In this document: positions 4,902-43,109 of the stretch, piece after piece | How the letters are laid out: each line of letters starts with the position of its first letter | How positions within the stretch are numbered: position 1 is the first letter of the stretch | Origin: Raillietiella orientalis | Lineage: Eukaryota | Direction: 5' to 3' | Assembly (NCBI GenBank): GCA_036172245.1 | Contig: JAYWIR010000032.1 | Span: forward strand, 186,001-250,000 | Length of the DNA: 64,000 bases | Position numbers and translations under genes: made by a program | The notes under the pieces: generated by a model | Database searches by the model: none | Told to the model about the DNA's origin: nothing | Seen by the model: only the letters and a program-made list of their open reading frames with translations

Positions 4902-4975
4902 CGGACACCAACGATGTGAAAAAGCACACACTGAACCAAAAAAACCGCTTTCCGCAGCTCGTTCGCGGAGCGCCG

Positions 4976-4997
4976 GAAAAACACGTCCGCTCTCGAG
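4976..4997 (-). promoter_or_regulatory. Conserved family-1 5'-terminal motif (putative internal promoter), example copy
   Basis: CT-N7-GGACGTG-TTTT-like sequence at the 5' ends of A, C, F, J, M, R, U, W and X. The function is inferred. Confidence 0.55.
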
Positions 4998-7918
4998 GAG
5001 AGGGATTTGGGGAGGGGCCGCGTAACGAAACAGGGTATCTTCAGGCCCGAAGTTACGCCAGAACCATCGACATGCGCAGGTTAGCAGAGTATCGAGCAGG
5101 AGCCGAGAGGCAAGCCTGGCAATCCGGGTCGGCCAGCTTGCTGGACGACCAGGGCCGGGAGCACTCGGTTCCCGCTCAGAAACGCGGGATAGTGAGGAAA
5201 TTTTACTCCTCCCTGTACGCCAGGGCGCCTCCGGAGCGAGACGTCTCACGACTTCTGCTCCCGGAAGGTGCTCCACCGATCGGGGAGGAGGAGAAAAGAA
5301 GCCTCGACGAGCCTTTCACGATTGACGAGATCCTCTCGGCCATCGGAAAGCTCAAGAGACGGAAGGCTTCAGGGGAGGACGGCCTGCCCGCGGAGTTTTA
5401 CCAAACTTTCGCGGCTGAGCTTACCCCCCTGGTACAGCAACTCACCTTGCTGATTCGCCAGACAGGTGACGTTCCCACCTCGTTTCGTTCAGCAAAGTTG
5501 CGGCTCCTCCCGCAGGGAGAAGACCTAAGGAGCATGAACAACTGGCGTCCCATCACAATAGTGAATGCGGACGCCAAGTTGATCGCCAAGATGTGGGCAG
5601 AGCGTCTGGGACGGGTTGCCAACATCTTCATCAGCCCGGAACAGACTTATGCTGTTCCCGGGCCGAGCATGGAGGCGAACCTGTTCCACGCTTCCACATG
5701 GTTAGGGCTCCAACGAGGAAGGGGCTTATTGAGCAGCCGGAATTCCGGTGCGTCCGTTGGCGGGAGACGGAACGGTCGGGTGGGGAAGGGAGCCCTTGCG
5801 GTCGCTGTCGACTTGCGTAAAGCATTCGACAGAGTCGACCAGAATCTCCTGCTGGAGCTTCTGGAAGGCTTGGGCTTCCCGGCCTCTTTGTTGGCCTACC
5901 TGCGCTCTAGCTGGCGCGACGCGCTCATTAATGTTCTTTTCAGCGGGCAAACCGTGCACGGAGTACCGGTGCGACGCGGCATACGGCAGGGAGACAGCCT
6001 GAGCCCCCTGCTCTTTAGCGCCTTTTTCGAATTGGTGCTGAGAGCGTACAGGGAAACTCTGGCGCACCTGCTGCGCGAATGTCCCGGTACGCCTGCGGTT
6101 TCGGCATACGCGGACGATCTTCTGCAACTGCTCCCTATGTCCACTTCGGCTTCGGAGGTCGAGGAGTTCTTCGACCTGCTGCATCGGGGAACCGGACTTA
6201 TGGTGAACAGGGCGAAGTCGTCCGTAATGCCAGTCGGAGCGGCGTGAGCAGGGCAGCAGGACTGGGTCCGTTTGGGGATCCCCACGGTGAGGTACTTCAA
6301 GTACCTTGGTGTGCCGTTAGGGGACTACTACCCTGCGGAAGCGTGGTCCAGCTGCCTCTAGAAAGAAGAGACGGCGATCGGCCCGTTCCAGGACGGCAGG
6401 TTCTACCTGCAGGAACGGGCCGCGGCGTGGAACGCTTTTGCGGCACCCCTCCTTCGCCCTTTGCTTTTTGTTTGCCCTCCTCAGCGGAGTCAAAGAAGAG
6501 GACGAAGGACCTCCTGAGGATCGCCCTTTGGGGCAGAGTGAGGCCCCGAGTCCGTCTTTCGGACTTGTGCGCTCCTGGTCGGGATGGTGGTCTGGGCCTC
6601 CTGACGTTGGAGCGGCTGGAGCTACAGCTCCAGTTCCGAGTTGTCGCCTTTATGGCAGAAAATTGGTGCACCCCATGGTGCCTCCCTGCACGTCTCCTCG
6701 TCGAGCGGGCCACCGGCAATGCGGGACTCTCGTCCTACTTTGCACTCCGAAGCCTTATCTGCCACTGCGGACTTTAACTTCGGAGGGCGGCCAAGCTCGT
6801 GAAGAACAACTCGGCGCGGATCCTCGTACGCCCCGCGAACTGTCCTGCCTGGCTGCAGGAAACCGTGCGCACGTGGGCGATGATTCAGGAGCAGAGCCCG
6901 CAACACGAGCGAAAAGCTCTGTTCGGGCCGCATGCCCACCGCACGCTCCGAGAAATCATCGAGGATCCCCGAAGGAGAGCGTGGGCACAAAGAACCTCCC
7001 TTGCTGCGGTACTGCCTACCCTACGGGAACATCTGGGCAGCGACGTCGCGGCACAATGGGAGGTTACTGTCAAGATCGCCAGCAGGGCAAAGAAGATCGG
7101 GGATTGGAGAACGGGTCAGCTCACCAACGCTGCGACCCCGAGGACCACCCCAAATGGACTGTTGCGCTGGGGAGAGCTACTGGATGTTCCAGAGGAACAT
7201 CTCGAGTGGCCCCCGGTGCTCATGGACTCGCGCACCCTCCCCATGAAGTGGCAACAGTCGGCACTGATGGTGTTGCATTGGGGGCTTCCTTGCAACGCCC
7301 GCCGACACCACTGGACGCGGGGGGGTGTCAACCCTAATTGTGTCAGGTGCGGGGAGAGGGAATACCTCCCCCACCTGTTAGTGGATTGTGTTGCCCTCCG
7401 TCCCTTGTGGGAACGCTTTGCCGCAGCCCTGGGGATCCCCGCAGGCAACCCCAGAGACGCTTTGCTCCCCCTCTTCGTCCGTGACGCCCTGCCTCCAGCG
7501 GCCTTGCTTGCAGCCCTGTGCTGCCTACGCGGGATCGTCGTGGCATGGAGCAAAGCGACGGGAGGATCCAGCGACAGGGATGCCAACGTGTATGCCGCCC
7601 GTTTCCTCAGGATGGCGACGCGATGGCCCCATCTGGAACCACACACGCAGAAGCAGCTTGCCGGCATCCTCCACAGGATGACGGACCCTCCCAGCAGACT
7701 GTGATCCCTTCGCGCTCCCTCCCTGATTTTTGTTTATTTTTTTGTTTTCTTTTTGTTTCGTTCCCCCTCCCCTCTGCTGCCGAAGTCGACCGCGCCGGTC
7801 TGCGCACCGGTATCCCGGCAAGCTATATCTTTCCAGGGTGTGGCTGGACTACTGGTCCATTCACAGATTATATAGGTTTATTCGTGAGAATAAACGTCCC
7901 GGCGCACCCGGGTTTCAA
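4998..7918 (+). mobile_element. Element B: 3' part of family-1 LINE (RT, C-terminal Zn finger, 3' UTR, intact 3' end)
   Basis: DLRKAFD, QGDSLSP, YADD (ORF 4895..6247); CVRCGEREYLPHLLVDC (ORF 6799..7704); AATAAA 7889-7894 followed by a hairpin. Confidence 0.92.
7889..7918 (+). terminator. Family-1 3'-terminal signal (example): AATAAA + CCCGG-CGCAC-CCGGG hairpin + short A run
   Basis: The same arrangement, variably degenerate, ends copies at about 11113, 11922(-), 17513(-), 22952, 27082, 32729, 42081(-), 43110(-), 47161(-) and 55758. Confidence 0.8.
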
Positions 7919-10531
7919 TCGAGGTTGCGGAGGATGACGCCTCTCGGGAACTGTCGGAGATGTTCCGCCGCACCGGAGACGCGCGTCGAGTCCCCTTGGC
8001 ATACGCCACGCCCTGGATGGTGGTCCTTTCTCGCGTGGCATAATTTCGATTATCAACCGGAAGTTGTCCGATAGCGTCGACGGAATTTTCCCTCGTCTGC
8101 CGACCCGTGGGCACAGGTCGGCGTCAAGCAAGACGTGGTCTACGGTTTGGGCCATTTCCGGTAGGTCCCCTAGCAAGTTGCGCGTACGCATAGCGGCGCA
8201 CAACTCGTTGGTTGCGTCTTTTTGCCTGCAAGGCACACCTGATAGCAGGCGGATGTTGAAATTACCACCGATCAGATGTGCCTTGCGTACGTTTGTATCT
8301 GCCAGCCAGTCGCGCTACAGGGTTTCGAGGAACCGGGAACGTTCACCGTACCCGCGTCCTCTGCTCGGAGCGTACACATTAGTCACGACAAGATCGATCG
8401 AGTCGGACAACCTAATTATAAGCTGGCCAACCCGACTGTCCTTGTCGAATCGTACGTCCTTGACGAAGGAAGCGACTGCTGGCTTCATAAAATACGCGAC
8501 GCCACAGGTGTTGCGAGCGCCGCATTGCCAAAACAGACGACCCCCTGCGATCATTTCGATATCCTGGGCGATCTCCGCGGTGATCACGTGGATCTCCTGC
8601 AGGAGTGACAGGTCGAAGTCACGCAGGGTGTCGGCCGTGTCCCGCCTGTTGCCGTCATCGCGCAGCCCGTTGACGTTCCAGCAGGCTACGCGTATCCTAC
8701 GGCGACAGGCGAACCCAGGTGCTAACCCTGGGAAACTGTCAATGGGCCTCCCACCACCTGGTCGAGCTGGACGCTAGGCGGAGGGGTTGCGTCGCGCACC
8801 GCTTCTTCCTCCTCCATGAAAGCCAAATTTTCAGCAGTGCCGTGCAGAGAAAGGGGGGGTTCATTCACCTGCACTTCTTCCTACATGGGAGTCGCCAGCG
8901 GCACGGTGTCGGGGAATGAGATATTCCACCGTCGCCTCCCACGCTGCCGGCTTCCCCCTCGGGGGCCGATTCATCCGCCTCCTTATTGATCCGGATGCGC
9001 CTCCTTTGATTCTGAGACTTCCGTCCCGTCTTCTTTGGTGGCTCCCCCGCTGAAGAGGACGCACTTCCGACGTCCGGATCGGCCTCACCTGCCTCCGGAG
9101 CCTTCCTCGCGGCCGGCCTTTGCAAGGCTTTTCGCGAGTTCTTTTCACGGCCTTGCAATTCAGCCGTGAGTTGTACCACCGGCTCCTGGAAGGCGGCCTC
9201 CTCGATCGCGTCGAGCGCGGCGCGCGGTTCCCCCTCTGTTTCGCCAGAGGGATCACCATCGACCATCGCAACTTCGGCGGACGCGAGGGGGGGGATTGCT
9301 CCCCCGGTGGCGGCATCAAGTGCCTTCACACGTTCTAATTTTACCGAACATGCGCGGAGCTTTTGGCGGCACGGGTTTTCGCGCTGCGTTTTTGTTTTCA
9401 CCGCGTTTCGTTCGGGACTCCCGGGTTTTCTTCGTGGCTGTACCGTCTGTCAGCCTTCGCCGTCACCAGCGTCGTCGGGAGTGTTCTCAACCGACGTTTG
9501 CTGTGAGGGCTTAGGGACTGGCATCTGGGTGTTTGCAGCCTGTATCTGTTTATGCGTCTCCCCCGTGCGTTTCCCCTTTTCCTTTTTTGCAGCGGATGGG
9601 GGCGGGATTTCTCTTCTTGGGCACACCTTACGGATGTGGCCCTTATTTCCACATAAGTGGCACTGGATGTTAGGGCACCGCTTTTTTAGATGCCCTGTAG
9701 CATCGCAATGGCCACAATACTTGGGCTTACCCACGTACCAAACATCGTCTTTTTCTTCGCCGATATTCAGTTTGTGGGGAAGCCCAGCATTCTCTGGTAG
9801 GGTGACGCGGGCTGCGGCCATCCCTCTGAATAGCCTTTCGTACGTTCGGAAGACATTGGGTTGGGCGCAATACGCGTGCACACTACTATGCTTCGACAAC
9901 TCCTCATGGACTCTGGTTTTGTCCATTCGGAGTGATACGCCTGTGAGGTGGACCACGATGGAGCGGTCCTCCGTCACAGGGAAGATCCTGCGGTCGTCCA
10001 CCGTAATAGGGATGTTCAGCAGTCGCTGCGCCAGACTTGCCTCTTTGCATGTCAGCTCAACTCGCTGGCCCCCACTAAGGACGGATAGGCTTAGAAGGTC
10101 TTCCTCCCTCACGTTCAAACTTTGCAGCTCCATTCCGAAGGAGCGTGCAATTTTTTCATCAAACACACTGCCCACCTCATAGATCAGAGACGGCTTGTAG
10201 CCGCTGTTCTTGTAGGCAGTCTGCTCCGCTACTGCATCCGGGGATGGTGCAGCAACGACGTCACTCCAACTCCTCGCCAATGGCGAAGAGGGTCGCGAAG
10301 GGGCGGTTGCCCTCGATTCCGATGGGGCAGGTGCCTCGGATTCCTAGGGGGCGGATGCCCCCACTTTTATTGGTGGAGAAGATCATGTCGCTTCTCCTAC
10401 TTCAAATTCCATGGCGGTGTCCTCAGGCATTTCTGCCATGGGACACCGGTGCTCCCACACACCAGACAACCAACGAAAAGCTTCCCACTAACCAGTCCCT
10501 GGAGCGATGCCAAACCACGGCCGCTCCCTAG
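7919..10531 (-). mobile_element. Element C: 5' part of family-1 LINE (5' UTR, disrupted ORF1 10439-8722, EN)
   Basis: 5' end CTAGGGAGCGGCCGTGG; knuckles CGHCDATGHLKKRC and CHLCGNKGHIRKVC; EN WNVNG...NVYAP; broken at 7919 by the 3' end of B. Confidence 0.9.
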
Positions 10532-11142
10532 AACGACACGGGGAAGTGTGAACCTAAACTGTGCCAGGTGCGGGGAGTAGGAAACCCTCCCGCACCTTTC
10601 AATTGAGTGTGCTGCTTTCCGGCCCCCGTGGGAACGTTTCGGTTCCACCTTAGGGATCCTGGAAGGTAGTCTTCCCAGAGAGGTTTTTCGGCTCCTCATA
10701 GTGCGGGACACCCTGCAGCCAGCAGCTGTAATAGCAGCTCTCTGCTGCGTACGCGGTATTGTGGCAGCTTGGAGTGTATCCGACTAAGCAGAGGATGTTA
10801 ACAGAAGGAATGCCATGGAGTATGCAGCTCGTTTTATTCGAATAGCATCCCGATGGCCCCACCTGGGAAATCTGCGGAAGGACCTCGTCGGCATCCTGCA
10901 AAGGAAGAAAGCTTTACAAAACGGACAGTCATCCCTTCCCGTCCCTCCCAATGACCGGTGTTTCTACTTTTTATTTCTTTTTATTTTTGTTTTTCCCCTA
11001 AACTTATCCTTTGATGTGGAGTGTTACGTTGGTCTGTGCACTGACAACCAGAAAGCTCCATAGAACTATTGGCCGCAGCGGGGCCTTGTACCGCAAATAC
11101 TGTTAGTTTTTAAATAAATGTTCCGGCTTGAGTGGGTGAAAA
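10532..11142 (+). mobile_element. Element D: 3' terminal fragment of family-1 LINE
   Basis: TTRGSVNLNCARCGE*ETLPHLSIEC, then RWPHLG, a T-rich UTR and AATAAA 11113-11118 ending GGGTGAAAA. Confidence 0.85.
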
Positions 11143-11921
11143 CTTCAAAGTGCACGTCGCGCAGCGCATCAACGACGGCTGGCTTGAGCATGAAAGCCAC
11201 ACCGCGGGTACGGTCTCTCCCGTTTTAATACATGAGCCGCCAGCCTGCGATCCGTTCGATTTCCTGGGCCTCCTCTGCGTGGAGCACGTGCGTCTCCTGC
11301 AAAAGCGCCAGGTCGAAGTTCCGCAGGCTGGCGGCCACTTCTCTCCTCTTGCTGTCGTCGCGCAACCCGTTGACGTTCCAACACATTACGCGCAGTCGCC
11401 GGCAGGAGGAGAGTTCACGCGTTGGTGTGTTTATGTTGTTTGCTTATCGTCCTCCACCTGCTGTTCAGCAGGCGGGAGTTGTGTGTCCATTGCGACGGGT
11501 TCTGCCGCGCGAGGAGGTGGTCCGTCGGTGGTTGTGGTGGTGTTGGAGGATCCTACTTGGCCTGGGCCGCCTCCGGCGAGGAGTCGCTTGACCTCGCGGA
11601 CATCGCCTCACTGTCGTCGTGATCTGACCTCATTTCCTCCTCCGCCGGTGGAGGTGCGGACCGCCGCGGTTTGCCTACCTCGCGGCCTACTTTGCGCTTT
11701 GCGAGAGCCACAGCCGGAGCGCTGCCGGCTTCGGCTTCGGACTCGGAAGTTTCCGATCTTTTTGCCTCAGCCGGACGCCTCAAGGCCTTCTTTTCGGCCT
11801 AGAGAGGTTCCTGGAGCATAACTGCCAACTGTTCCGCCGCCTTACTGAAATCCTAGTCGTCGTTGCTCACGCTGGGCTCGCGACTTTGTCGCGGCGTCGG
11901 CATTCGCGCGGAGGCGGGTTG
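11143..11921 (-). mobile_element. Element E, downstream piece (ORF1 C-terminus + EN N-terminus)
   Basis: KKALRRPAEAK...; CWNVNGLRDDSKRR...LQETH. Continuous with 19143-20275 once F and G are removed. Confidence 0.85.
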
Positions 11922-12175
11922 TTCACACCCGGATGTGCCGGGAAATTTATTTCATAGAAATAAAATTACAGAAAACTGTCGCGTGGCGAACCCGAAGGTT
12001 CACCACTCCAAAACAGCTTGCTGGTTACCGGCTCCGTGCCGGAGAGGTCCTTCCGATGCGCGGGGATGGGAAATAAAGAAAAACAAAAAGAAAAAAAAGT
12101 TCAAATGTGGGGGGCAACAAATGTTGTAGGGGTGGGAGGGCGGGGAAGGGATCACGGTGCGCGTGGAGAGGTCCT

Positions 12176-15100
12176 CTAGATCCTATTCAGGATCCGCACA
12201 AGCTGAGTCCTTTCAGCGCCCAAGTGGCGCCACTTGCAGACACTGCGCGCGAAAAGGCGAGTCCAGTGTGAGGCGTTGCCGGTTGGCTGACGCCTTCTTC
12301 TGGTGGCGTTCCAAGCCGCCACTATTCCTCTGATGCAGCAGAGGACTGCTACACTAGCGGGCGGGGACAAGGCGTCACTACAGAAGAGGCGCCTGAAAAC
12401 GTCCTTTGGGCCGCATCCGCGCAAGTCCAGGATCGCCGCGAGACGATCCCACAAAAAGCGGAGGGCGCTACACTCAAGGAGAAGGTGGGGGAATGTTTAT
12501 TTTTCCCCACACCGGTCACAATTGGAATCCACAGCCCCCCGGGTGGTGTTGTGCAGGCGTGCTTTAAATGGTAATCCCCAGAGTATTACAAGCAACGCCA
12601 CATCCGGCCATTTCAGGGGGAGGGATGCACTGTTCCAGGACGCTGGGGGCCACTTCATCTCCTCCGGAGATAGTCCGAGTAGCTCGCCCCAGCGTCGAAT
12701 TCCGTTGGGCGGGACACTCGGCGTCGCAGCGTCAGCTAGCTGCCGAGATATCCACGCCTTTATCGATTGTGTCCTGCCGCCTATAGTGCAGGACACAGTC
12801 CATTTCCCCTGCTCGCTACTGTCCCTGGCATTCACAAGGAAGGGCAGCACTGGGGCGAGGGGGGTTATCAACGCCCACAGAAGCTTGTCGTGGGACTGCA
12901 CGATCTCCTGCAGCGTCCAGCGGGCGTGCCTTTTCATACAAGTGTTTCTTGTGCCCGCCGGAAATTGGATCTTTACCCAGCTGGAGACTGACTCGTGCAA
13001 CCAGGCGGAGTAGTTCCCTGGGAGGCAGGAGATCCAGGCGTTCTCCCGAACCGCAACAAAGATGCGTCGCAGCATAGAGCCACAGTATGGTCTTCTGCAG
13101 ACGCGCGCAGACAGAAACAACAAAAGTCCGCCGAATCCGCAGACTCGTTGGGCCAGGAGGCGTGCTGGAACGCACCAAGGCGTGTCCCACAATTCTATCG
13201 CAAGGGCGAGAGTCCTGAATCGAAGTTGTATTTCGATGCGCTCCAGCGTAAGTAAGCCAAGTCCACCGTCCTTACGTGGAGCGCACAAGTCTTTGAGCCA
13301 CACACGGGACCTCCCTTTGCCCCAAAGAACTGTCCTCAGGAGGCCCGCTGCTCGTTTCCGAATAAAATAAGGAGCGGAGCAAACAAAAAGTAGGGGGCGA
13401 AGGAGGGGAGCCGCAAACGCGTTCCACACCGCGGCCCGTTCCTGCAAGTAGAACTTGCCTTATTGGAACGGACCGATCGCCAACGCTGACTTTTGGAGAC
13501 GGTCGGACCAGGCTTCTGCTGCGCAGAAGTCCCCCAACGGTACGCCGAGGTACTTGAAGCACCTGCCCGTGGGGATCCCCAAGCGGATCCAGTCCGACCG
13601 TCCAGCCCACGCCGAACCGACGAAGACCATGGACGACTTCGCCCTGTTCACCTCCAGGCCCGTCCCGCGGCGCAGCAACTCGAAGAAGACCTCGAGTGCA
13701 CTCGCCGGGGTGGACCCGGGAAGCAGCAGCAGAAGATCGTCTGCATAGGCCGACACGGCAGGCGTGCCGGCACACGAGCTCGGCAGGGTTGCCAGAGTTA
13801 CCCTGTATGCCCTCAGCACCAACTCGAAGTAGATGCTGAAGAGCAAGGGGCTCAGGCTGTCACCCTGCCGGATGCCGCGGCGTACGGGCACGCCGTACAC
13901 GTGCCGGCCGCTAAAACCGATATTGATTGACGCGTTGCGCTAGCAGGAGCGCAGGTAAGATTGAAGCAAGGCAGGGAAACCCATGCGTTCCAGGAGCTCC
14001 AGAAGGAGATCCTGGTCGACGCAGTCGAATGCTTTGTGCAAATCGACCGCGACGGCAAAGGCTCCCGCCGAGTCCATCCCACCCTCTGCCCGATCTTCTT
14101 GGTCAGAGGGGGGCGCGAGGCTCCCTTGACCGTCCTGTGCAACGCGTTGGCGCAACTGCCACCATGAGCTGGCGAGGAGCAGGTTGGCCTCCATGGTTCG
14201 TCCGGGAACAGCATAGGTCTGCTCGGGACTCACCACGGAAGCGGCCACCCGCCCCAAACTCTCAGCCCACAACTTGGCATACAACTTTGCGTCCGCATTC
14301 ACTACTGTGATGGGACGCCAGTTGCCAATGTTGCGTAAGTCTCCTGACTTCGGCAGGAGACGTACTTTAGCTGACCGGAACGAGGCGGGAACTTCGCCGT
14401 GTTCGCGGATCAGCGCACTTAACCTGAGCACCAGGGGGGCCAGCTCTGGCGCGAAGCGATGGTAAAACTCCGCGGGCAGGCCGCCCTCCCCTGGTGCCTT
14501 CCTTCTCTTGAGCCTGTTGATGGCGGAGATGATCTCCGCCATCGTGAACGGTTCCGCCAATCTGGAACGGTCCTCCTCCTTGAGCGCGGGAGCGCCATCC
14601 GGCAGCAGGCGCTGCGCGAAATGGCGCTCAGGTGTTAGTGGCGCGTACAAGGAGGAATAAAACTCCCGCACGATGCGGCTTACCTGGGCTGGGCTGGAGC
14701 GTTCTTGGCCCTGATGATCCAGCAGGCAGGCCGAGCCTGACTGCCAGGCCTGCCTCTCCGCCTCAGCCTTGAATTCAGCCAGACGACGGACGTCGGGACG
14801 CCGGGAATAACGGCGCGCCTGGAGGTACGCCCGCTCGTTCCTGACACCCTCACCGAAGCCCGGCGGAAGACGTTCCAGCGGAAACTGGTCGCAAAACTCA
14901 CGGACTGAGCACTTCATTTCGTCCCAGTCCGCGAGCGTCTGAAGCTGGAATCCTCGCAGGAAACAGCGTAGATGTTCCGCCGCTCCTGCGAGGCGCAACT
15001 AATCCCCTGGCAGGCGCCATGTTTTCAGGGGAGGGCCCTCATTGCGCGGATGTAACTCGAGCACGAGCCGTGGATGGTCGGACAGCTCTGCCGGGAGCGT

Positions 15101-15733
15101 TCCTCGAGTTCCCACCCGCGTGCAAAGGTGGTTGTCGAGGAACATGTGGTCGATGTTCCGATCTCTCCCGGCATCGCCGGCCAACAAGTTGCGCGCATGC
15201 ATGGCTGCGCACAACTCGTTGACCAGCTGTGCTCGTCCGCTGGGCGCACCTGCCAGCAGGCGGAGATTGAAATCGCCCGCAATGAGGTGCGCCCTTCGCA
15301 CGCCTGCTTAGGCCAACCAGTCTCGCCGCAAGGTTTCGAAGAACGCAGTGCGTTCCTCGGCCCTGTGGCTGCTCACCGGAGCGTACAGGTTCGTGACTAC
15401 GAGGTCGATCGAGTCGGACCACTTGAACACAAGCTGCCCAACTCGACCATCCCCGTCGAACCGTGCACTGCGCAGTGAGTTGTCGACGGTTGGCTTTAGC
15501 AGAAAGGCCACTCCGCAGGAGTTGTCCGTCCCGTTCCTCCACAGTAGCCGCCCTCCCGCGATTCTTTCGATTTCCTGGACATCTCCCGGTCGGAGAACGT
15601 GCGTCTCTTGCAGGAGCACCAGGTCGAAATCTCGCAGTATGGCGGCTACATCTCGCCTCTTTCCGTCGTCGCGCAACCCGTTGACATTCCAACAGCTGAT
15701 GCGCAAGCGGCGGCAGAAGGCGAGCCCACGCAC
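12176..15733 (-). pseudogene. Element F ORF2 (EN + RT + C-terminal Zn finger), 1186 codons with five internal point stops
   Basis: Six ORF pieces share one frame, with stops at about 15308, 14999, 13940, 13460 and 12497. EN and RT motifs and CDRC...HLLLEC are present. Confidence 0.93.
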
Positions 15734-15741
15734 TGATGCGT

Positions 15742-17409
15742 TTATTGTGGGGTGGAGGCGGCCTCCTCCCTTGCGGGAGGCGGCTTGTTGGCGGCCGTGA
15801 CGACGGTCGGCTGCTCACACGGGAGCACGTCGTCCACAGCGACTTCCATGGGGCTGGCTTCCGAGACACGGATCGGAGAGGGGTCGCGTGGCGCGACGCA
15901 CATTGCCTCCTCCTCCGTGCCCGAGGACATGGCCTCCTCCACCTGCGGAGGGGCGACCCGTCTCGGGCAACCGGTCTTCTTACCAGCCTTCCTCTTCGGC
16001 ACGGCTGAGGAAGTAGAACAACCGGCTTCGGTTTCGGACTCGGAATTTTCCGGGCCTTTCACCGTTGCCGGTCGTCTCAAGGCCTTCTTCTCGGCCTTGG
16101 CAGGCTGCCGTAACATGGCTGCCAGCTCTTCCGCGGCCTGCGCGAAGGTCGCGTCCGTTATGCGCGCCGCCTCCTCGCTTTCCGCACCGACGCTTTGCGC
16201 AGGCGCGACAGGGGCGGCTTCATCGATCGGCGCGCAGACGTCCTTCGGTGGCAATGCCGGAACGGCATTGTCGTCAGCTGATGGTGACGTCACTGCGGGC
16301 ACGACCGGCTCAGGATCGACGGTATCGATCGCCTTTACCGTTACTTTCTTTACGGCTCTGGCGATCGAGACGCGTTCGATCTTCACCGTACAAGCGCGGA
16401 CGACCGGTTTCTGCTTTTTCGGCGCCGCCTTGTTTATCTTTTTTGCCTCCTTCTTCTGGGGCTTCTTCCTTTCTACCTTTTGCCAACCTTCCTCGTTCTC
16501 GGCGCTTTCTCCAGCTGGTTGTTCGCTGGTGGATGCCTGAGTAGCGGGTTGGTCGGCAGGGCGGGGTTCTGCCAGTTGTTGGCTTCGGTCCTTTTCCTTC
16601 GGCGTCTCTTCCTTCCTCGCGCCTGACGGAACGGACCTTTTTCGGTTGGGGCACATCCGCCTGATGTGCCCCTTCTCCCCACAGCCCAAGCACACGATGT
16701 TGGGGCATTTCTTTTTTAAATGCCCCGACACCTGGCAAAAGCCGCAGTATACGGGTTTCCCCACATACCACAGGTCGATCTCCTCCTCCCCGACCTGCAG
16801 TCTGTGGGGTAGCCCACCCTCGGCACGTACCGTCACACGCGCAGCGGCGTAACCACTAAATGCCCTGGTGTAACCCAGGACATTGGGTTTTGCCCACAAC
16901 GCGTGAACGGTCCCGAACTTCTCTAACGATTCTCGCACGGCGCTCTTTGCCATGCGCATCGTTATGCCGGTCAAATGCACCACGATGGAGTTGTCCGCCG
17001 TGAACGGGAAGATCCTTCTCCCGTTCACGGTCACCGGCAGGCGGAGCAGCTGCTGAGCCATCCCTGCAGATTTGCAGTTCAGCTCAACCAGCTGCCCGCC
17101 ACTCCTAACCGAAAGCCCGAGGACTTCGTCCTCCGGGACTTTCAACTTTTTAAACTCCGCGGCGAACGACCGCAAAACCGCGGGGGAGTACAGGCCACCT
17201 ACCTTGTAAAGTAGGGCCGGGTTGTAGCCGTCGGCCATATAGGCCCGCTGTTCCTCTGCGGGGGGCGGCGCAGGCGCCGCCACCACCGCGCTCCAAGCCC
17301 TCGCCGGGGCGGGGGACGATTCCGTGGGGGAGATGGCCCCCACATCCATGGGCTGGGGGGACGAGGCTCGCGCGCCCCCCTCCGCCGTCTTTGCGGCGTC
17401 CTCGGGCAT
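15742..17409 (-). CDS. Element F ORF1, intact 555-aa gag-like zinc-knuckle protein
   Basis: ATG at 17409 (MPEDAAKT); CGFCQVSGHLKKKC and CLGCGEKGHIRRMC; basic then acidic disordered tail. Confidence 0.9.
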   Translation of the reverse strand: MPEDAAKTAEGGARASSPQPMDVGAISPTESSPAPARAWSAVVAAPAPPPAEEQRAYMADGYNPALLYKVGGLYSPAVLRSFAAEFKKLKVPEDEVLGLSVRSGGQLVELNCKSAGMAQQLLRLPVTVNGRRIFPFTADNSIVVHLTGITMRMAKSAVRESLEKFGTVHALWAKPNVLGYTRAFSGYAAARVTVRAEGGLPHRLQVGEEEIDLWYVGKPVYCGFCQVSGHLKKKCPNIVCLGCGEKGHIRRMCPNRKRSVPSGARKEETPKEKDRSQQLAEPRPADQPATQASTSEQPAGESAENEEGWQKVERKKPQKKEAKKINKAAPKKQKPVVRACTVKIERVSIARAVKKVTVKAIDTVDPEPVVPAVTSPSADDNAVPALPPKDVCAPIDEAAPVAPAQSVGAESEEAARITDATFAQAAEELAAMLRQPAKAEKKALRRPATVKGPENSESETEAGCSTSSAVPKRKAGKKTGCPRRVAPPQVEEAMSSGTEEEAMCVAPRDPSPIRVSEASPMEVAVDDVLPCEQPTVVTAANKPPPAREEAASTPQ

Positions 17410-17500
17410 CTCTGCCCAGGAACAACCGCTCACAGCTGAAAACACCGAAAACACTCGCGAGAAAAACGCGGAGCACCACAAAAGCACGTCCACCCTCTCA

Positions 17501-17512
17501 GGCGGCGGGTTG
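17501..17512. repeat. Middle copy of a triplicated 12-bp target-site duplication
   Basis: GGCGGCGGGTTG at 17501-17512 and 19143-19154; one-mismatch copy at 11910-11921. Confidence 0.9.
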
Positions 17513-19144
17513 TTCACACCCGGATGTGCCGGGGCATTTATTTCATAGAAATAAACTAACAGAAAAATTGTCGCGTGGCGAACCCGAAGGTTCACCACTC
17601 CATAACAGCTTGCTGGTTACCGGCTCCGTGCCGGAGAGGTCCTTCCGATGCGCGGGGATGGGAAATAAAGAAAAACAAAAAGAAACAAAAAGTTCAAATG
17701 TGGGGGGGGAACAAATGTTGTAGGGATGGGAGGGCGGGGAAGGGATCACGGTGCGCGTGGAGAGGTCCTCTAGATCCTATTCAGGATCCGCACAAGCTGA
17801 GTCCTTTCAGCGCCCAAGTGGCGCCACTTGCAGACACTTCGCGCGAAAACGCGAGTCCAGTGTAAGGCGTTGCCGGTTGGCTGACGCCTTCTTCTGGTGG
17901 CGTTCCAAGCCGCCACTATTCCTCTGATGCAGCAGAGGACTGCTACACTAGCGGGCGAGGACAAGGCGTCACTACAGAAGAGGCGCCTGAAAACGTCCTT
18001 TGGGCCGCATCCGCGCAAGTCCAGGATCGCCGCGAGACGATCCCATAAAGGGCGGATGGCACTGCACTCGATGAGAAGGTGGGGGAAGGTCTCTTTTTCC
18101 CCGCACCGGTCACAATAAGGATCCACAGCCCCCCGGGTTGTGTGATGAAGGCGTGCTTTGAATGGAAGTCCCCAGAAAACCACAAGCAACGCCACATCCT
18201 GCCATTTCATGGAAAGGGATGCACTGTTCCAGGACTCTGGGGGCCACTTCATCTCCTCCGGAGATAGTCCGAGTAGCTCGCACCAGCGTCGAATTCCGTT
18301 GGGCGGGAATCTCGGCGTCGCAGCGTCCGCTAGCTGCCGAGATGTCCACGCCTTTATCGATTGTGTCCTGCCGCCAATAGTGCAGGACACGGTCCATTTC
18401 CCCTGCTCGCTACTGTCCCTGACATTCACAAGGAAGGGCAGCACTGAGGCGAGGGGGGTTATCAAGGCCCACAGAAGCTTGTCGTGGGACTGCACGATCT
18501 CCTGCAGCGTCCAGCGGGCGTGCCTTTTCATACAAGTGTTCCTTGTGCCCGCCGGAACGTGGATCTTTACCCAGGTGGAGACTGACTCGTGCAACCAGGC
18601 GGAGTAGTTCCCTGGGTGGCAGGAGATCCAGGCGTTCTCCCGAACCGCAACAAAGATGCGTCGCAGCATAGAGCCACAGTATGGTCTTCTGCAGACGCGC
18701 GCAGACAGAAACGACAAATGTCCGCCGATTCCGCAGGCTCGTTGGGCCAGGAGGCGTGCTGGAACGCACCAAGGCGTGTCCCACAATTCTGCCGCAAGGG
18801 CGAGAGTCCTGAATCGAAGTTGTATTTCGATGCGCTCCAGCGTAAGTAAGCCAAGTCCACCGTCCTTACGTGGAGCGCACAAGTCTTTGAGCCTCACACG
18901 GGACCTCCCTTTGCCCCAAAGGACTGTCCTCAGGAGGCCCGCTGCTCGTTTTCGAAGAAAATAAGGGGCGGGGCAAACAAAAAGTAGGGGGCGAAGGAGG
19001 GGAGCCGCAAACGCGTTCCACACCGCGGCCCGTTCCTGCAAGTAGAACTTGCCTTCTTGGAACGGACCGATCGCCAACGCTGCCTTTTGGAGACGGTCGG
19101 ACCAGGCTTCTGCTGCGCAGAAGTCCCCCAACGGTACGCCGAGG
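17513..19144 (-). mobile_element. Element G: 5'-truncated close relative of F, head-to-tail upstream of F
   Basis: ORF 17770..19131 aligns with the F C-terminus; the 3' UTR is near-identical; truncated at the YLG motif with GG microhomology to the TSD. Confidence 0.95.
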
Positions 19145-20275
19145 CGGCGGGTTGAACAGCTGGCGTGACGTCACATCGCATCGATCCGTCAGCTGAGCGA
19201 GTATCGATCGCCGGCACGCGTTTGATGGCCACGCTTCACGCTTTTCTTGTTGGGCGTGGCGCTTGCGTTGCCTTGCCCTTCAGCACTTTCGCTGGTGCGT
19301 GCGCGGTTTTTTTAATAATCTTTACTTTACGGTTGACCAGCTGCCAGCCTTCCTCGTCGGCAGTCTCTTTCGGGAGCTCTTGTACCGAGTCCCTTTCCTG
19401 CTTCGCGACTTTTGTCGGAGCCGACAGCTCATTTCCTTTTGTGAGGTTCATTGTGATTTTTGGCTTTCTTTCCTTTTTTGCGAAATTTCCGGCGTTGGAG
19501 CGATGTTCATCAGGCACACTACTTTGATTTTGTCCTTCTTTCCGCAGGTGGGGCAAACCGCGTTCGGGCACCTCTTTTTCAGTTGACCGAACGTCTTACA
19601 GTTCCCACAAAATTTGGGCTTCCCCACAAACCCAACGTCGACGAACTCGTCGCCGATTTGTAGTTTATGGTGAAGCTGCACGCTTTCTCGCCGCGTCACG
19701 CGCGCAACCACTCGCTCACTAAATGCACCGTTCACTCCGAAGGTGTTGGGCTTTCTCCACATTGCAAAAACGCTTGCAAATTTTTCAAGCTCAGTACGGA
19801 TGGCGTTTTTATCCATCCGCACTGTTGTCCCGGTAAGGTGAACTACAATGGAGTGGTCCACCGTGTGAGGGAGTAAATTCCTGCCCTCAAATTGTACGGG
19901 CGTGCAGAGCATTTTGTGAGTAAGAGCTGCATCCTTGCAGAGGAGCTCCGTTAACTGCCCTCCGCTGCGTATTGAGAGGCAAAGTATTTCATGGTCGGCA
20001 ATGCCCATCTTTATGATGGCATTGCCTAACTTTCGCGCCCTTAACGGGGAATATCAATTTCTTGGCTTGTACATGAGGGCCGGATTCTTGCCCTTCTGGA
20101 TGTAGGATTGTATTTCGGTGGCGACATTGGTCGTTTCCGCCGCTGTCACCGCGCTCCAGGCTCTCGCCGTAGTGGCGGGGGAAGGTTCAGAAGTAGTAAA
20201 GGGGTGTGATCCCACCTCCTTTGGCTTGGGAGACGCGATCTTCTTACCTCCCTCACATTAAACTGCGTCCACTGT
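19143..20275 (-). mobile_element. Element E, upstream piece (5' end + ORF1 N-terminal half, disrupted)
   Basis: ORF 19448..20008 with CGNCKTFGQLKKRC; close match to element R. Confidence 0.87.
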
Positions 20276-22981: not shown

Positions 22982-24133
22982 ACGACGACGCTGCATTCTT
23001 CAATTATCGCGCTACCCTGTTCTTTCATTTTTTGTTGGTAGGCGATTTTTTTCTCCAACCTACTCTCGTTTCATTTTTTGACAGTTCCGACTTGCACCCA
23101 GGCAGCTAACCGGTTTCCTCAACTTTTTCGGCGTTGATCGACGGGGTCTCGGGTGCGGCCTATGCCTTGGACGCGAGTGGCACAGCCTTCGCGCCCGCTT
23201 TCGCCGCCAGCCTTTTCTGCAGCAGGTGGGCAGGTTTTTTAAGGTTTCTCTTGGAAACGACGCGCGCACCGGCTTTCGGGCACACCTCCCTCGTGTTACC
23301 CATTGTATTGCATACTTGGCACTGCACGTGTATACACCGCTTTTGGAGGTAGCCCGAGGTATTGCAGAAGCCGCAGTATTTCGGCTTCCCCACATAGCAT
23401 AGGTCGACGGTTTCGCCATCGACCACCAGTTTGTGGGGAAGAGTGCAGCCCTCCCGAATGGTCAAGCGTGCAGCCGTGAAACCGTGCTGCAGCTCCGTGT
23501 AGTCCTCAAAGGGACTAACCTTCGACCACTGCGCGTGGACCGTTCCATATTCTTCCAATGTGGCGCGAACCTGTTGTTTCCGCATCCGCGCGGTGACGCC
23601 CAATAGGTGGATCATTATGCTGCGGTCCCCCGTAAAGGGGAGGAGCCTGCGCGTCTTCATCACCACAGGGGTTTTAAGCAGTCGTTGGGCCTGCTCTGCT
23701 TGTTTGCAGATGACCTCAACGTACTGACCCCCGCTGCGGATGGTCATAGCGCTGAGCTCCTCCTCTTTCACATCGAGAGCGCGCATCCCCTTTGAGAAGG
23801 CGCGCGCGCTCTTTGAAGAATATAGATTGCCTACCTTGTAGAACAATGAGGGTTTATACCCCCTTTCCGCATAGGTCATCAATTCCGCCGCGGCTGCAGG
23901 CGATGGCGCCAACACAACGGCGCTCCACTCTCGCGCTGCAGCGGGGACCGATTCTGTCGGGGCGGATACCTCCACCTCCATCGCCTCTGGGGGCGACGTT
24001 TCCGCCCCCCCCTGGCCATCCCTGGTGGTCGCGTCAGGCATCGCTGCCTGATCGACCATCGAAACACACGACGCTTGCACTGGAATAGACTTCCTGGCAC
24101 GAGGATCACCGAGAAAACACGTCCTCCCTCGAG
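22982..24133 (-). mobile_element. Element J: 5' end + ORF1 (MPDATTRDG subfamily), broken by H
   Basis: 5' end CTCGAGGGAGGACGTGTTTT; ATG at 24041; CGFCNTSGYLQKRC. Confidence 0.9.
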
Positions 24134-27111
24134 CGATAAAGCATTCTTCTGCGTCAAACAGGAACTCCTCTTGGAGCACCTGGAGAGTCTTGGGTTTCCG
24201 AACAGACTTCTCCTGTACTTGCGCTCCTGCTGGCGTGACGGGCTTATCAACTTGCTTTTCAGTGGTTCCCGAGTTTACAGCGTGGCAAGGCGCAGAGGCA
24301 TAAGACAGAGAGACAGCTTAAGGCCGTTGCTATTCAGCTTCTAGTTTGAGTTGGTGCTGAAAGCTTACAGGCTGACGCTGGCCTTCCTTCCCAGCGCCTC
24401 TCCGTGTACTCCGTCCGTGACAGCATACGCCGACTACCTTCTGCCTATCTTGCTCATGTCCACTCCACTCGGTCGAAGACTTTTTCGAGCTGATCCGTCG
24501 TTGTGCGGGCATGAAAGTTAACAAAGCGAAGTGCTCCGTCGTGCCGGTGGGTACGTCGAGGGAGGTGCAGGCCGACTGGATCCTCCTGGGGATCTCCACG
24601 GTCAGGTACTTCAACTACTTTGACTTCTTGTTGGGCGACTTCTGCTCGTCTGAATAGTGGTCGGACTGTCTTCAAAAGGCATAGATTGCTTTAGGCCCGT
24701 TCCTTAAAGGCAAGTTCATCTTGCCGGAAAGGGCGTGCATATGGAACACTTTTCTTGCCTCCCTCCTCCGCCAATTATTTTTTGTTTGCTTGCCTCCCTA
24801 TGTGGTTAAACTCCGGGCGCAGCGTCTCCTACGTAAGGTCTTGTGGGGCGCTGCACGATCCAGGGTTCGCCTTAAAGATTTGGTGGCGCCATGCCAGGAC
24901 GCAGGCCTGGGCATTCTGACCATCCAGAAGATTGGACTGCAAGTGCAGTTCCGGCTTCTATCCCTATGTGGGAAATTGTGGTCTAGTCACTGGTGTGCTC
25001 CGGCTTGCCATATCCTCCAGCGCAGTGTGGGCAGTGCAGGACTGCTTTCGTTGCTGCTGCGCAACCTTCGCCGGAGAACTGGATTTGGCTACCCACTGAG
25101 GCATTTGTCCTCGTTGTTGTTAGCCCATTCCTAAATTTCCTGTTGCCTCTCCAACTGGAATGCTTGGCAGCAGGAAGCTCTGGAGCAGTGAATTTTCAAT
25201 TTGGATGTGCGTCCAGAGCAGCCGCGATTCCTAAAGGGTTTATTACGGAAACCGCTAGGAATGATCCTAGAGGTCTGGTCGCTTTGGTCCCGGGTTGCCA
25301 TCTCACCGATTGCCGCAGCGCTGTCTGCTCTCAGGGCAAACAACGACAGTAGCCAACCGGCAAGGTGGAAGTTCTTCTGTAGCATTGCAGGAGTCGCAAG
25401 ACTGCTGAGCGGCTGCAATACAAGCGTATTGGTAGAAGCTGCCACTCCTCGTTACCCGGCAAAGGGACTCCTTCGGTGGAGTGAGGTTGTTGGACTACTT
25501 CCCGAAGATCTCGTGGTCCCTTCCTTGTGTGTGTACACCTCCGTGTTCCCGCTTCGATAGAAACAGGATGTTCTGCTTTTTCTGCACTGGGGATTTTAGA
25601 GAAATAAGCGCAGATATTTGGTTTCCTGGGAAGTCGCCTCCCCGAACTGCATCAGGTGCGGGGCGATAGGATCGAGTTCAGTGACATGCGGGAGTTATGG
25701 GGGAGACTTGCTTCGGCACTTTGTCGTCCCCAGGACACTGTTATCGACCTGCTGCGACGCTTGTTCAGCGAAGACGGACTGAATAAATGCCCTGTGTTCG
25801 CAACAATCTGTTGCATCCACGTCATCGTAACGGCCCGCCGTTAGCTAATTTTCCCCGAGTCCCACAAGGGGTGGGGTAAATTTACTTTTCTATAAAAATA
25901 ACATTCACACTACACTTTTACATTCACACTCTCATTCACTCGTTATATCACCACTTTTCACTTTGAAGTCCTGGGGTTCACTCGAGTTCTGCTATCAGGG
26001 TGGGGGTCCAGATGTTTGTCCCCGGCGTCGTCCTCGATCCTCTTCAGGATGAATCTGTACGTCCAGGCTTGGATTCTTCCGCAGTTCCTGATGCCGATTT
26101 CCTTCTTCAGGAGTCCTTGGAGGTTCTCCATCGGAGGTGCGGCTCTCCTGGCTTTCCTCATCTTCCACCACCGCACAAGTATGGCAGTGATGAAGAGGGC
26201 GATGGTCGTCCTCACCATGGGATTGTAACAGGGAACATTACCATCTCCCTGAAACATCCCGGCGAGGATCTCCATTACGGAGCTGGTGGTCCGTCCGATG
26301 ATCCTTTTCAGGATCAGCCAGTCGTGAAGCAGTGTGGGACACGTCAAGATGTGGAGTGTTGTGTCGGTGTCACCACACGCCGTGCAGTCTCTGTCTTCCC
26401 TTCTTCTCGTGAAGTGCTGTAGTCTGGACCCCGTCAGGATTCCTCCATGGTAGAACATCAGGAGGTTGTCCTGGGTGTCCGGCGGAAGGTCACTCCTCCA
26501 GAGCGTCGTGCCGATCGCCAACAGGTTGATCCGGTCACTCCCGTAGCGATCGGCGGCTTCTTGGAGGGCACTGGTGTCGCGGTCCTCTTCTTTAATCAAT
26601 CTTCGGAGGTTCATTCTGGTTACCCTAGACCAGGCGAAGTCGTTGTGGTTGATCCACACCTCGCGGGTCTGGTGGGTAAACCTCCCTAGCATCATCTCTA
26701 TGTACCGGAGTACATGCGAGTGATGTTAGCTACAAGGAAGTTTTCAGCGAATGGACGCTGCCAGGATAGCCGCGAACCTTATGAAGGTAGCTGTCACGTG
26801 GCCTCATCTGCCGAGAAAATTCTCGAGGGATGTCGCCATCGTCAGATAGCGCTTCTAAGAAGGTGAGGAACGTTTAATGCCAGAGATCCCTGACCTCACC
26901 TTCCACTGTTTTTTTGTTTGTTCTCTTATGTTTTTTTTATTTTGTGCCCCGCTCCTTCCGTTATTTTCTTTTCAAAGGCGACCTGCGTGCCGGTGATCCT
27001 TTCGGGCTGAACTTTCTGTGTGGGCCATTCTTGTGTCGTGAAAGGATGAATTTCCTTTCAAGATTGTTGTTTGTTTTTACAAATAAACGTTGCAGCGCAG
27101 CCAGGATTAAA
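24134..27111 (+). mobile_element. Element K: decayed 3' part of family-1 LINE, interrupted by L
   Basis: Begins at DKAFFCV (RT motif), YADY, KGLLRWSE; resumes after L with WPHL; AATAAA 27082-27087. Confidence 0.87.
25848..26724 (-). mobile_element. Element L: 5'-truncated family-2 LINE with 8-bp TSD GTTAGCTA
   Basis: Open 245-aa ORF2 C-terminus with CTACGDTDTTLHILTC, homologous to Y1; TSD at 25840-25847 and 26725-26732. Confidence 0.9.
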
Positions 27112-42468: not shown

Positions 42469-43109
42469 CGAACGGCGGACGCAATTGTTGTGCGCTCCAT
42501 GGATCAGAAGTTTTTTGTTCGGAGTTTTGTGTGTGTTTCGCGGACTTTCACAGGCAGAAATGCCTGTGAACGCCGCAGTTTCAGGTGAGGGAGGCGGGAA
42601 GACCGCGTCTCCCAAGCCAAAGGAGGTGGGATCACGCCCCACCACTACTTCTCAACCTTCCCTCGCCACAACGGCGAGGGCTTGGAGCGCGGTGGAAGCG
42701 GCGGAAACGCCCAATGTCGCCACCGAAATACAATCCTACATCCAGGAGGGCAAGAATCCGGCCCTCATGTACAAGGTAGGAAACCTATGTTCTTCGTTAA
42801 CGGCGCGAAAGTTCGACAATGCCATCAAAAACATGGGCATTGCCGACCATGAAATTCTTTGAATCTCAATACGAAGAGGAGGGCAGTTGACGGAGCTCAT
42901 CTGCAAGGATGCAGCTCTTACTCACAAAATGCTTTGTACGCCCGTACAATTTGAGGGCAGGAATTTACTCCCCCACACGGTGGACCACTCCATTGTGGTT
43001 TACCTTACCGGGACAACAGTGCGAATGGATGAGAACGCCATCCGCGCTGAGCTTGAAAAATTCGCTAGCGTTTTCGCGATGTGGCGAAAGCCCAACAGCT
43101 TCGGAATGA
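42469..43109 (+). mobile_element. Element R: 5' end + ORF1 N-terminus (E subfamily), broken by T
   Basis: GGCGGACGCA 5' motif, ATG at 42560, MGIADHEIL shared with E. Confidence 0.88.

Follow-up and report, generated by a model that had tools for sequence, protein, structure and literature searches.

How did two closely related LINE copies come to stand head to tail at a single position, with the same 12-bp sequence on either side of each? This question is raised by a 64-kb stretch of the Raillietiella orientalis genome (GCA_036172245.1, contig JAYWIR010000032.1, positions 186,001-250,000), referred to here as the window. The initial annotation of this DNA had proposed two insertions at one site, and we examine that proposal below, beginning with the layout of the locus and the anatomy of the elements and continuing with the ways in which such a pair could have arisen. 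Coordinates are those of the window, and features are on the minus strand unless stated otherwise.

Layout of the Locus

The pair consists of a full-length element (F) and a 5'-truncated copy (G), which lie head to tail inside ORF1 of an older LINE (E). Read along the minus strand, the order is the upstream part of E, a first copy of the 12-mer (T1), G, a second copy (T2), F, a third copy (T3) and the downstream part of E, and these coordinates agree with the order originally given (E ORF1, repeat, G, repeat, F, repeat, E ORF1). T1 (CAACCCGCCGCC, 19143-19154) was placed by pattern match and sequence and starts 2 nt past the E motif TGACGTCACGCCAGCTG (TGACGTCAC..CAGCTG). T2 (17501-17512) has the same sequence as T1 and sits between the 3' terminus of G and the first base of F, while T3 (CAACCCGCCTCC, 11910-11921) carries one G>T substitution, the T being at the tenth base. 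A 12-bp direct repeat consequently borders both F and G at both of their ends. For the upstream pair, T1 and T2, the identity extends over 13 nt, with a T following each.

The pattern CAACCCGCCKCC has exactly three matches in the 64-kb window, all of them on the minus strand, where about 0.03 matches are expected; three matches were reached in none of 100 shuffles. When two mismatches to the 12-mer were allowed, 10 matches were found in the window against 9.5 expected, i.e., there was no excess. The triplicated 12-bp TSD of the initial annotation is thereby recovered as three copies at the three junctions, with the single G>T in T3. That annotation had also singled out the pair as an exception in being in sense orientation, which holds relative to the neighboring chain of nested elements: F and G are on the same strand as their host E, whereas the chain to the left and right alternates strands.

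The upstream part of E (19155-20257) comprises its 5' end and the initial two thirds or so of ORF1, with the CCHC knuckles, and is heavily decayed, with stops and changes of frame. In a tblastn search with the ORF1 of F, E was matched by residues 40-307 (minus strand, 19451-20254). The 5' end of E, at approximately 20255-20261, abuts ORF2 of a plus-strand LINE. The downstream part (11143-11909) contains the remainder of ORF1 and ORF2 codons ~16-136 and ends at 11142/11143, where it is interrupted by a plus-strand LINE that was inserted backwards and meets E with its 3' end. E keeps one reading frame on either side of the insert, although this continuity is silent as to the original number of repeats, since any number of 12-bp copies preserves the frame. 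Only one more E-type copy is present in the window (42574-43109, 89% identical), and a further insertion interrupts it ~590 bp upstream of where the site would lie; a protein search with an 81-aa open piece of E ORF1, aimed at uninterrupted copies of E, produced no match.

Structure of F and G

F is a full-length L1-like LINE of 5,579 bp (11922-17500), comprising a leader of 67 nt, ORF1, ORF2 and a 3' UTR. Its ORF1 (15742-17433) is open over 563 codons from the ATG and encodes a CCHC zinc knuckle, whose zf-CCHC match in the profile search was marginal (21.5 bits versus a cut-off of 20.8). The ORF2 frame (12176-15814) spans 1,212 codons with five in-frame stops and no frameshift, and encodes an AP-type endonuclease (Exo_endo_phos, residues 42-247, 57.1 bits with a cut-off of 24.5), a reverse transcriptase (RVT_1, residues 488-759, 78.8 bits with a cut-off of 29.6) and a putative C-terminal zinc-binding region. 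For the latter, zf-RVT scored 21.9 bits in F and 20 bits in G, the cut-off of 27.5 being higher than both, and the C..C..H..C spacing is visible in the translated C-terminal regions of ORF2 in F and G. The closest solved structure to F is that of human LINE-1 ORF2p (E = 8e-44), with R2 proteins at ~1e-12 to 1e-14. By its endonuclease and reverse transcriptase domains and its ORF1, F is an L1-like non-LTR retrotransposon of the APE type.

G (17513-19142, 1,630 bp) is an F-type copy that lacks the first 3,952 nt of F and corresponds to F positions 3953-5579. It retains the C-terminal 456 codons of ORF2, which are open. With F being full length and G starting at F position 3953, G does have a truncation point of its own, as had been stated. 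There is no gap between this point and T1, whose two final letters (CC) are also found in F immediately before position 3953; a flush truncation with a 2-nt microhomology is what is expected of a 5'-truncated LINE insertion.

The 3' UTR of F (11922-12175) contains AATAAA, followed by a terminal 5-bp hairpin (CCCGG, loop CACAT, CCGGG) and then TGTGAA, and the ~257-nt 3' UTR of G (17513-17769, minus strand) has the same layout. Neither copy has a poly(A) or A-rich tail: both end ...CCGGGTGTGAA right before the 12-mer, and related families in the window also finish in two to four A residues. In an alignment of five 3' ends, those of F, G and three other elements, similarity runs through the AATAAA, the CCGG hairpin and the final AA, after which all five diverge at once into unrelated flanks. 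At the opposite terminus, the first bases of F align with the 5' termini of element A1 and of two inserts at RT motif A, while in the same alignment the 5' termini of elements C1 and E align poorly with F. Judged by the ends of related families, F starts and stops at the normal termini of its family, so that the 12-mer is target DNA and belongs to neither F nor G.

Divergence between F and G

F and G had been described as differing by many substitutions, and the alignment returned 72 of these, together with three one-base indels, at 95.4% identity; no other sequence in the window exceeds 78% identity to F. The difference between the copies is mosaic. Thirty of the 75 differences fall within 183 columns of the alignment, a clustering reached in none of 20,000 random placements, and this divergent patch (18042-18224 in G, 12448-12630 in F) is situated near the C-terminus of ORF2, in the putative zinc-binding region. 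Changes within the patch are mostly silent (pS = 0.37, pN = 0.10, ratio 0.27), as opposed to those outside it (pS = 0.031, pN = 0.028, ratio 0.91). Based on these ratios, the patch bears the signature of purifying selection and the remaining F/G differences look neutral, which suggests that the patch diverged in functional lineages prior to insertion. The patch could also stem from later gene conversion by a third copy; when a donor was sought in the window, no other copy was closer than 71%. A contig from sequencing run X1 that lies over ~18001-18263 differs from G at eight listed places, having the letter of F at four of them, and keeps the G letter at the remaining places at which F and G differ. 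Since the copy represented by this contig is G-like in the patch, the G type of patch is present in another copy.

A Probable Double Insertion into a Single Target

The best explanation for this locus, and one that we regard as fairly probable, is that two separate target-primed insertions took place at the same site and with the same 12-13 nt stagger. F and G would then each be the product of target-primed reverse transcription, inserted separately by one L1-like LINE lineage without poly(A), and both would have entered the same 12-bp sequence in ORF1 of E in the sense orientation of the host. In both events the two strands would have been nicked at the same position with a spacing of 12 (possibly 13) nt, so that one copy of the 12-mer was added each time. 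During the event that gave rise to F the RNA would have been copied through to its 5' end, while during the one that gave rise to G reverse transcription would have stopped after 1.6 kb and the product would have been joined at the 2-nt microhomology.

As two events at one locus, this explanation implies that the element is sequence-specific and that its target outlasts the first hit. The first insertion would swap out one original flank of each copy of the 12-mer, and as the second hit would have been made on a 12-mer with one flank lost, the 12-mer and only one original flank should be enough for recognition by the endonuclease and for setting the stagger. The double hit may therefore be regarded as a natural experiment on target recognition, one that narrows where endonuclease recognition must lie: each 12-mer would keep one original flank after the first insertion, yet the nick positions and the 12-13 nt stagger would recur. 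Such a target would be self-renewing, so that arrays could grow. A target-specific LINE could in this way seed a tandem array, a first step from a dispersed element to a satellite-like or centromere-like cluster.

It is tempting to go further, although we hold the following more doubtful than not. The F lineage may be truly sequence-specific, with all recognition residing in the 12-mer and one flank, each insertion regenerating the landing site and arrays growing by repeated homing; together with the other mutually targeting families of this genome, this might be how its LINE-only islands are built. The divergent patch might, in addition, mark a nucleic-acid-binding module that is swapped between lineages.

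The initial annotation had suggested that the same nick and stagger were reused, as in site-specific non-LTR elements. The locus supports this to the extent that an identical sequence appears to have been hit twice with a 12-13 nt stagger, as reuse of a specific target predicts; the suggestion is qualified by a competing explanation that involves a single insertion. A tandem F-T-F located elsewhere could have been read through, past the weak 3' end of its first element, into a dimer RNA, which was primed at the 3' end of its second unit and 5'-truncated in its first, in which case T1 and T3 would be the only new duplication and T2 would have been carried in the RNA. We consider this unlikely, although junctions of the type required may exist elsewhere. 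In sequencing run X1 (share of the stretch 0.45; contigs of 300-500 bp, none spanning the stretch), a 485-bp contig (95% identity, 25 other letters) passes across F-5'/T2/F-type-3' and includes, besides the 12-mer, an F-type 5' end and 28 nt of F-type 3' sequence. A second contig, of 293 bp (88% identity, 35 other letters), lies whole across E-downstream/T3/F-3'. Both contigs, which have 40 letters on the informative side but reach just 28 letters into the F-type 3' end (fewer than the 31 of the boundary rule) and whose mismatch places are not visible, are a hint of other loci with the same junctions, and this hint also speaks for the double insertion. If a dimer RNA had been inserted, the two source units would already have differed in the patch, and the numbers of changes derived in F and in G, given below, are not significantly unequal. 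However, the transcript would have to exceed 7 kb and to run on through a 3' UTR that bears AATAAA, and the first tandem would still have to be made by double insertion, so that the question is only moved. The identity of T1 with T2 and not T3 confers no advantage either, as it needs the same single mutation as in the other models.

An explanation that we find quite improbable concerns the 12-mers beside the 3' ends, which could have been copied from read-through element RNA annealed to the nicked target and not generated by staggered nicks; the site would still have been hit twice. In R1 of Bombyx, read-through RNA that reaches the downstream target anneals to the nicked target. An element without poly(A) to anneal would need some other pairing, and every F-type 3' end in the window precedes the same 12-mer. 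On the other hand, T1 is upstream of the truncated G and cannot derive from the 3' end of an RNA, a 12-nt stagger is the simplest account of three equal repeats, and the data here are compatible with either origin of the downstream copy.

We disfavor, as very improbable, a single insertion of F followed by local tandem duplication (through unequal exchange between two 12-mers, or slippage) and a 3.95-kb deletion in the upstream unit: F and G are indeed each other's closest relatives in the window (95.4% versus 78% or less), their differences outside the patch look neutral (ratio 0.91) and there is a 3-nt identity (CCT) at both would-be deletion ends, but the start of the deletion would have to match the T/F boundary exactly (few positions among thousands would do so), the exchange would have only 12 bp of homology, and the 183-bp patch (pS = 0.37, ratio 0.27) would need an extra conversion from a diverged donor. 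The earlier judgment that a simple tandem duplication is unlikely is thus strengthened by the flush truncation of G, by the position of F at a conserved 5' terminus and by five 3' ends that stop before the 12-mer, as well as by the G-like third copy and by the patch, whose purifying pattern is not produced by decay after duplication.

Order and Age of the Proposed Insertions

For the double insertion, we lean weakly toward F having been inserted first, with G subsequently entering the upstream copy of the 12-mer. When polarized with outgroups, sites outside the patch are derived in F at 20 positions and in G at 14 (p = 0.39); with an outgroup margin of at least 3, the respective counts are 12 and 4 (p = 0.077). 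The amino-acid polarity is 12 for F and 6 for G, with 6 ties. The open ORF of G is no sign of youth at this level of decay, and the single G>T in T3 is compatible equally with every order of events. Polarization by CpG decay was also tried and was dropped, as CpG is undepleted (observed/expected 0.92) and only five sites were informative.

Comparison with Known Systems

Double insertions in which the tandem junction contains the target duplication and the members are truncated at different 5' points are described for R1, jockey and P in an excerpt of McGurk and Barbash 2018 (PMC5932611), which cites Roiha et al. 1981. According to the same excerpt, the R1 tandem junction in Drosophila melanogaster holds 33 nt of rDNA, and dimers whose 5' truncations differ are taken as proof of two events (PMC5932611). 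Relative to what is described there, F/G resemble the R1 tandems in that an APE-type LINE would have hit one target twice and the junction carries the duplicated target, and, taken alone, the pair adds one more instance of a mechanism known from R1 and other elements. The F/G target, however, is 12 bp inside ORF1 of another LINE, whereas that of R1 is rDNA, and unlike in R1 no array has grown out of the pair. In a further departure from the R1 dimers of that excerpt, the truncated member, G, is upstream, and at the tandem junction an intact 3' end meets a full-length 5' end.

Insertion of LINEs into existing copies is described for Zepp of Chlorella and Coccomyxa and for the Zepp-like L1 LINEs of Chlamydomonas, which form LINE-only clusters whose arrays are mostly 3' ends owing to 5' truncation (Craig et al. 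2021, PMC8226300, in the part that deals with these elements). F/G share with Zepp the entry of an L1-type LINE into existing LINE copies, a likeness by description and not by tree. In that part of the source the targeting of Zepp is described in general terms, and a fixed 12-bp site in ORF1 of a rival family, or a triplicated duplication, is a feature of F/G. The primary paper on Zepp is reportedly that of Higashiyama et al. 1997.

The Tx1 group consists of target-specific L1-like LINEs, such as Tx1L, which inserts in the Tx1D transposon. As in that group, an APE-type LINE has its target inside another mobile element, the likeness in clade again being by description; unlike in the Tx1 group, the host of F/G is the coding sequence of a related LINE. 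The additional value of F/G is as a clean, fully bounded case among the LINEs of this genome that insert into each other's genes.

Related Sequences Outside the Window

A scan with a DNA pattern from the 3' end of F identified two loci in metagenome contigs and 25 in prokaryote genome contigs, and we attribute all 27 to chance, as they have no kinship to F beyond the 22-letter seed. In viral contigs the same scan found 0 loci, and a protein-based search for F-type relatives gave no match. Among the sequencing runs, X1 alone contains the stretch, with X2 and X3 yielding no contigs on it. No joint of an empty or single-insert form was reported from these runs, an absence to which we attach no weight, and a joint of 13294 to 18965 in the X1 run was set aside as too weak, being present in one contig with 24 letters on its short side. 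A protein search with the 453-aa ORF of G identified one unnamed relative, P0001, with 60% identity over 43% of the ORF.

Layout of the G-F Locus

A pattern scan of the whole 64-kb window for CAACCCGCC[G/T]CC returned three occurrences, all on the minus strand, where ~0.03 are expected and where three matches were reached in 0 of 100 shuffles. These copies of the presumed target-site duplication, T1 (19143-19154), T2 (17501-17512) and T3 (11910-11921, with T as its tenth base), delimit a locus that on the minus strand reads as the upstream part of the host LINE E (decayed ORF1), T1, the 5'-truncated copy G (19142-17513; 1,630 bp), T2, the full-length element F (17500-11922; 5,579 bp), T3, and the remainder of E (remaining ORF1 and the start of ORF2). 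The triplicated 12-bp repeat and the G-F tandem inside E ORF1 described in the initial annotation are thereby borne out. T1 and T2 are identical over 13 nt, a T coming next after both. E is in one reading frame on either side of the insert, which is uninformative on the original number of 12-mers, 12 being divisible by 3. An empty E site was looked for and not found; the sole other E-type copy in the window (42574-43109, 89% identical) is interrupted ~590 bp upstream by another insertion.

F Is a Complete L1-Like Element

On the minus strand, F has an open ORF1 of 563 codons with a marginal CCHC knuckle, an ORF2 (12176-15814) in a 1,212-codon frame that is broken by five stops but by no frameshift, and a 254-nt 3' UTR with AATAAA, a 5-bp hairpin and TGTGAA at its end, where there is no poly(A) tail. 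Profile scores for ORF2 were 57.1 bits for an AP-type endonuclease, 78.8 bits for a reverse transcriptase (RT), and below threshold for the C-terminal zinc-binding region. The closest relative of solved structure is human LINE-1 ORF2p (E = 8e-44), with R2 proteins far behind. Based on its domains, this relative and the tail-less hairpin 3' UTR, F is an APE-type, L1-like LINE whose 3' end is structured and has no tail.

The 3' ends of F (11922-11990), G (17513-17581) and three window elements from other families (7850-7918, 11074-11142, and 43110-43178, ending at 7918, 11142, and 43110) align through AATAAA, a CCGG hairpin and a final AA, and then at once part into unrelated flanks. Likewise, the 5' start of F aligns with the 5' termini of A1 (a LINE of the surrounding nest) and of both inserts at RT motif A discussed below (common motif GAG.G..GGACGTG); the 5' ends of C1, also of the nest, and E match poorly in this alignment. 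By these alignments F is complete at either terminus, and the 12-mer is outside the element. The 3' layout shared across families (AATAAA, 2-4 nt, a short CCGG..CCGG-type hairpin, 4-6 nt ending AA, no poly(A)) may be an RNA handle recognized by the reverse transcriptases.

At 15177-15223, several contigs of the sequencing run X1 that match the endonuclease region of F ORF2 turn into unrelated sequence within ~45 nt, with loose ends before 15177 and 15183 and behind 15220 and 15223, which suggests that other F-lineage copies carry insertions at this spot. A LINE ORF2 at the window's right end (58193-61956, minus strand) is 27% identical to F ORF2 and is of a different lineage, much more distant than the rest of the nest.

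Divergence Between F and G

G aligns with F positions 3953-5579 at 95.4% identity (72 substitutions and three single-base indels), and nothing in the rest of the window is >78% identical to F. Both the many substitutions and the separate truncation point noted for G were recovered by this alignment. The truncation point, F position 3953, is flush with T1, linked by only a 2-nt identity (CC) between the end of T1 and the bases preceding that position, as is typical of junctions of 5'-truncated LINEs.

The differences are uneven, as 30 of the 75 fall within a 183-column stretch of the zinc-binding region, a clustering equalled in 0 of 20,000 random placements. In this patch pS = 0.37 and pN = 0.10, and the ratio of 0.27 indicates divergence under selection in working lineages; outside it (pS = 0.031, pN = 0.028, ratio 0.91) the differences look like neutral decay, ~3% in total. 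An X1 contig over about 18001-18263 differs from G at eight places (taken as the full set, lower-support rows included), having the F letter at four and a third letter at four. Since it retains the G letter at all remaining F/G-differing places, the G patch type is not private to G. Outside the patch, many of the letters private to F read T in the sense direction, with C>T, G>T, and A>T all contributing to this unusual spectrum, and transitions to transversions across all F/G differences are 36:36.

Two Probable Insertions at One Site

Taken together, the flush truncation, the patch and this X1 contig favor two source RNAs, and we consider it probable that the pair arose when one lineage inserted twice, in separate events, at the same site. 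Insertion of one read-through dimer RNA, copied from a pre-existing F-T-F tandem, in a single event is unlikely and would still demand an earlier double insertion somewhere. Local tandem duplication of F followed by deletion in one unit, already doubted in the initial annotation, is highly improbable, as the deletion would need to start exactly at the T/F boundary, the differences are clustered in a patch with a selected ratio, and a G-like patch recurs in an X1 contig distinct from G.

Double insertion has precedents: PMC5932611 describes tandem dimers so formed for R1 of Drosophila, jockey and P elements, with the target duplication in the junction (33 nt of rDNA for R1) and unequal 5' truncations. 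G-T2-F is alike in its target repeat within the tandem junction and the unequal 5' ends of its members. In PMC8226300, Zepp-type L1 elements of green algae are reported to target existing copies and to form arrays of 3' ends. The mechanism proposed for the G-F pair is already known, the pair probably being a further case of a tandem dimer by double insertion, and the locus offers a cleanly bounded natural experiment.

Target Recognition

On the scale of a genome, chance cannot explain why two insertions of the same lineage share one nucleotide position and one 12-nt repeat, and the F-lineage endonuclease should therefore have a strong preference for the 12-mer sequence. The first insertion would leave each repeat copy with one native flank only; since the second event would have reproduced the nick positions nonetheless, the 12-mer and one flank should suffice for recognition and measurement of the stagger. 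Of the earlier proposal that the same nick and stagger were reused, the shared 12-nt repeat stands, and the nick positions would be those that target-primed reverse transcription predicts in general.

The site lies 2 nt past a TGACGTCAC..CAGCTG motif present at homologous ORF1 positions of E (19157-19173) and F (16275-16292), both minus strand. This palindromic pair has no further occurrence in the window (0 expected) and is retained though the surrounding E/F ORF1 protein identity is only about 46%. F thus lacks a target of its own, because its letters differ from those of E at the place corresponding to the 12-mer.

Two X1 contigs, judged by placement and mismatch counts alone, span junctions: one of 293 bp (35 differing letters) covers downstream E/T3/F 3' end, and one of 485 bp (25 differing letters) covers F 5' end/T2/F-type 3' end. 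Both reach 40 letters past the first boundary and have 28 within the F-type 3' end, which hints at site specificity across loci. Searches of other sequence collections yielded neither an additional F-type junction nor an uninterrupted E copy.

Relative Age of F and G

Sites outside the patch were polarized with other families in the window as outgroups. By outgroup majority at the nucleotide level, F was derived at 20 sites and G at 14 (no ties, p = 0.39); with a margin of at least three outgroups the counts were 12 and 4 (ties not counted, p = 0.077), and at the amino-acid level 12 and 6 (six ties, no p computed). We lean toward F being older and G having inserted into the upstream repeat, in which case recognition would lie in the 12-mer and the upstream flank of E. 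The open frame of G is expected fairly often by chance at such decay, and the lone G>T of T3 is compatible with any order of events.

The Surrounding Nest

From ~24.1 kb to the window start the elements alternate in strand, and the same-sense F and G inside E are, as had been noted, the exception. The nest (2-24137) is a staircase, each element interrupted by the next: a host (24138.., plus), W (23274-24137, minus), H1 (20262-about 23270, plus), E (between H1 and D1, minus, bearing G-F), D1 (10524-11142, plus), C1 (7970-10523, minus), B1 (5003-7918, plus), and A1 (2-about 5000, minus). The halves missing from these elements must be located past the start of the window.

In two different hosts, the 5' end of an insert falls on the same RT motif-A codons (24137/24138 and 45216/45217), which resembles another, independent instance of insertion at a shared site within the window. 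The interrupted host codons, in 24080-24200 (plus) and 45180-45300 (minus), are ..AAAGCATTC / ..AAGGCGTTC; in either host the break is made by the 5' end of an element inserted backwards, and both 5' ends are alike (reverse complement ..GG.GGACGTGTTTTCTCGGTG..).
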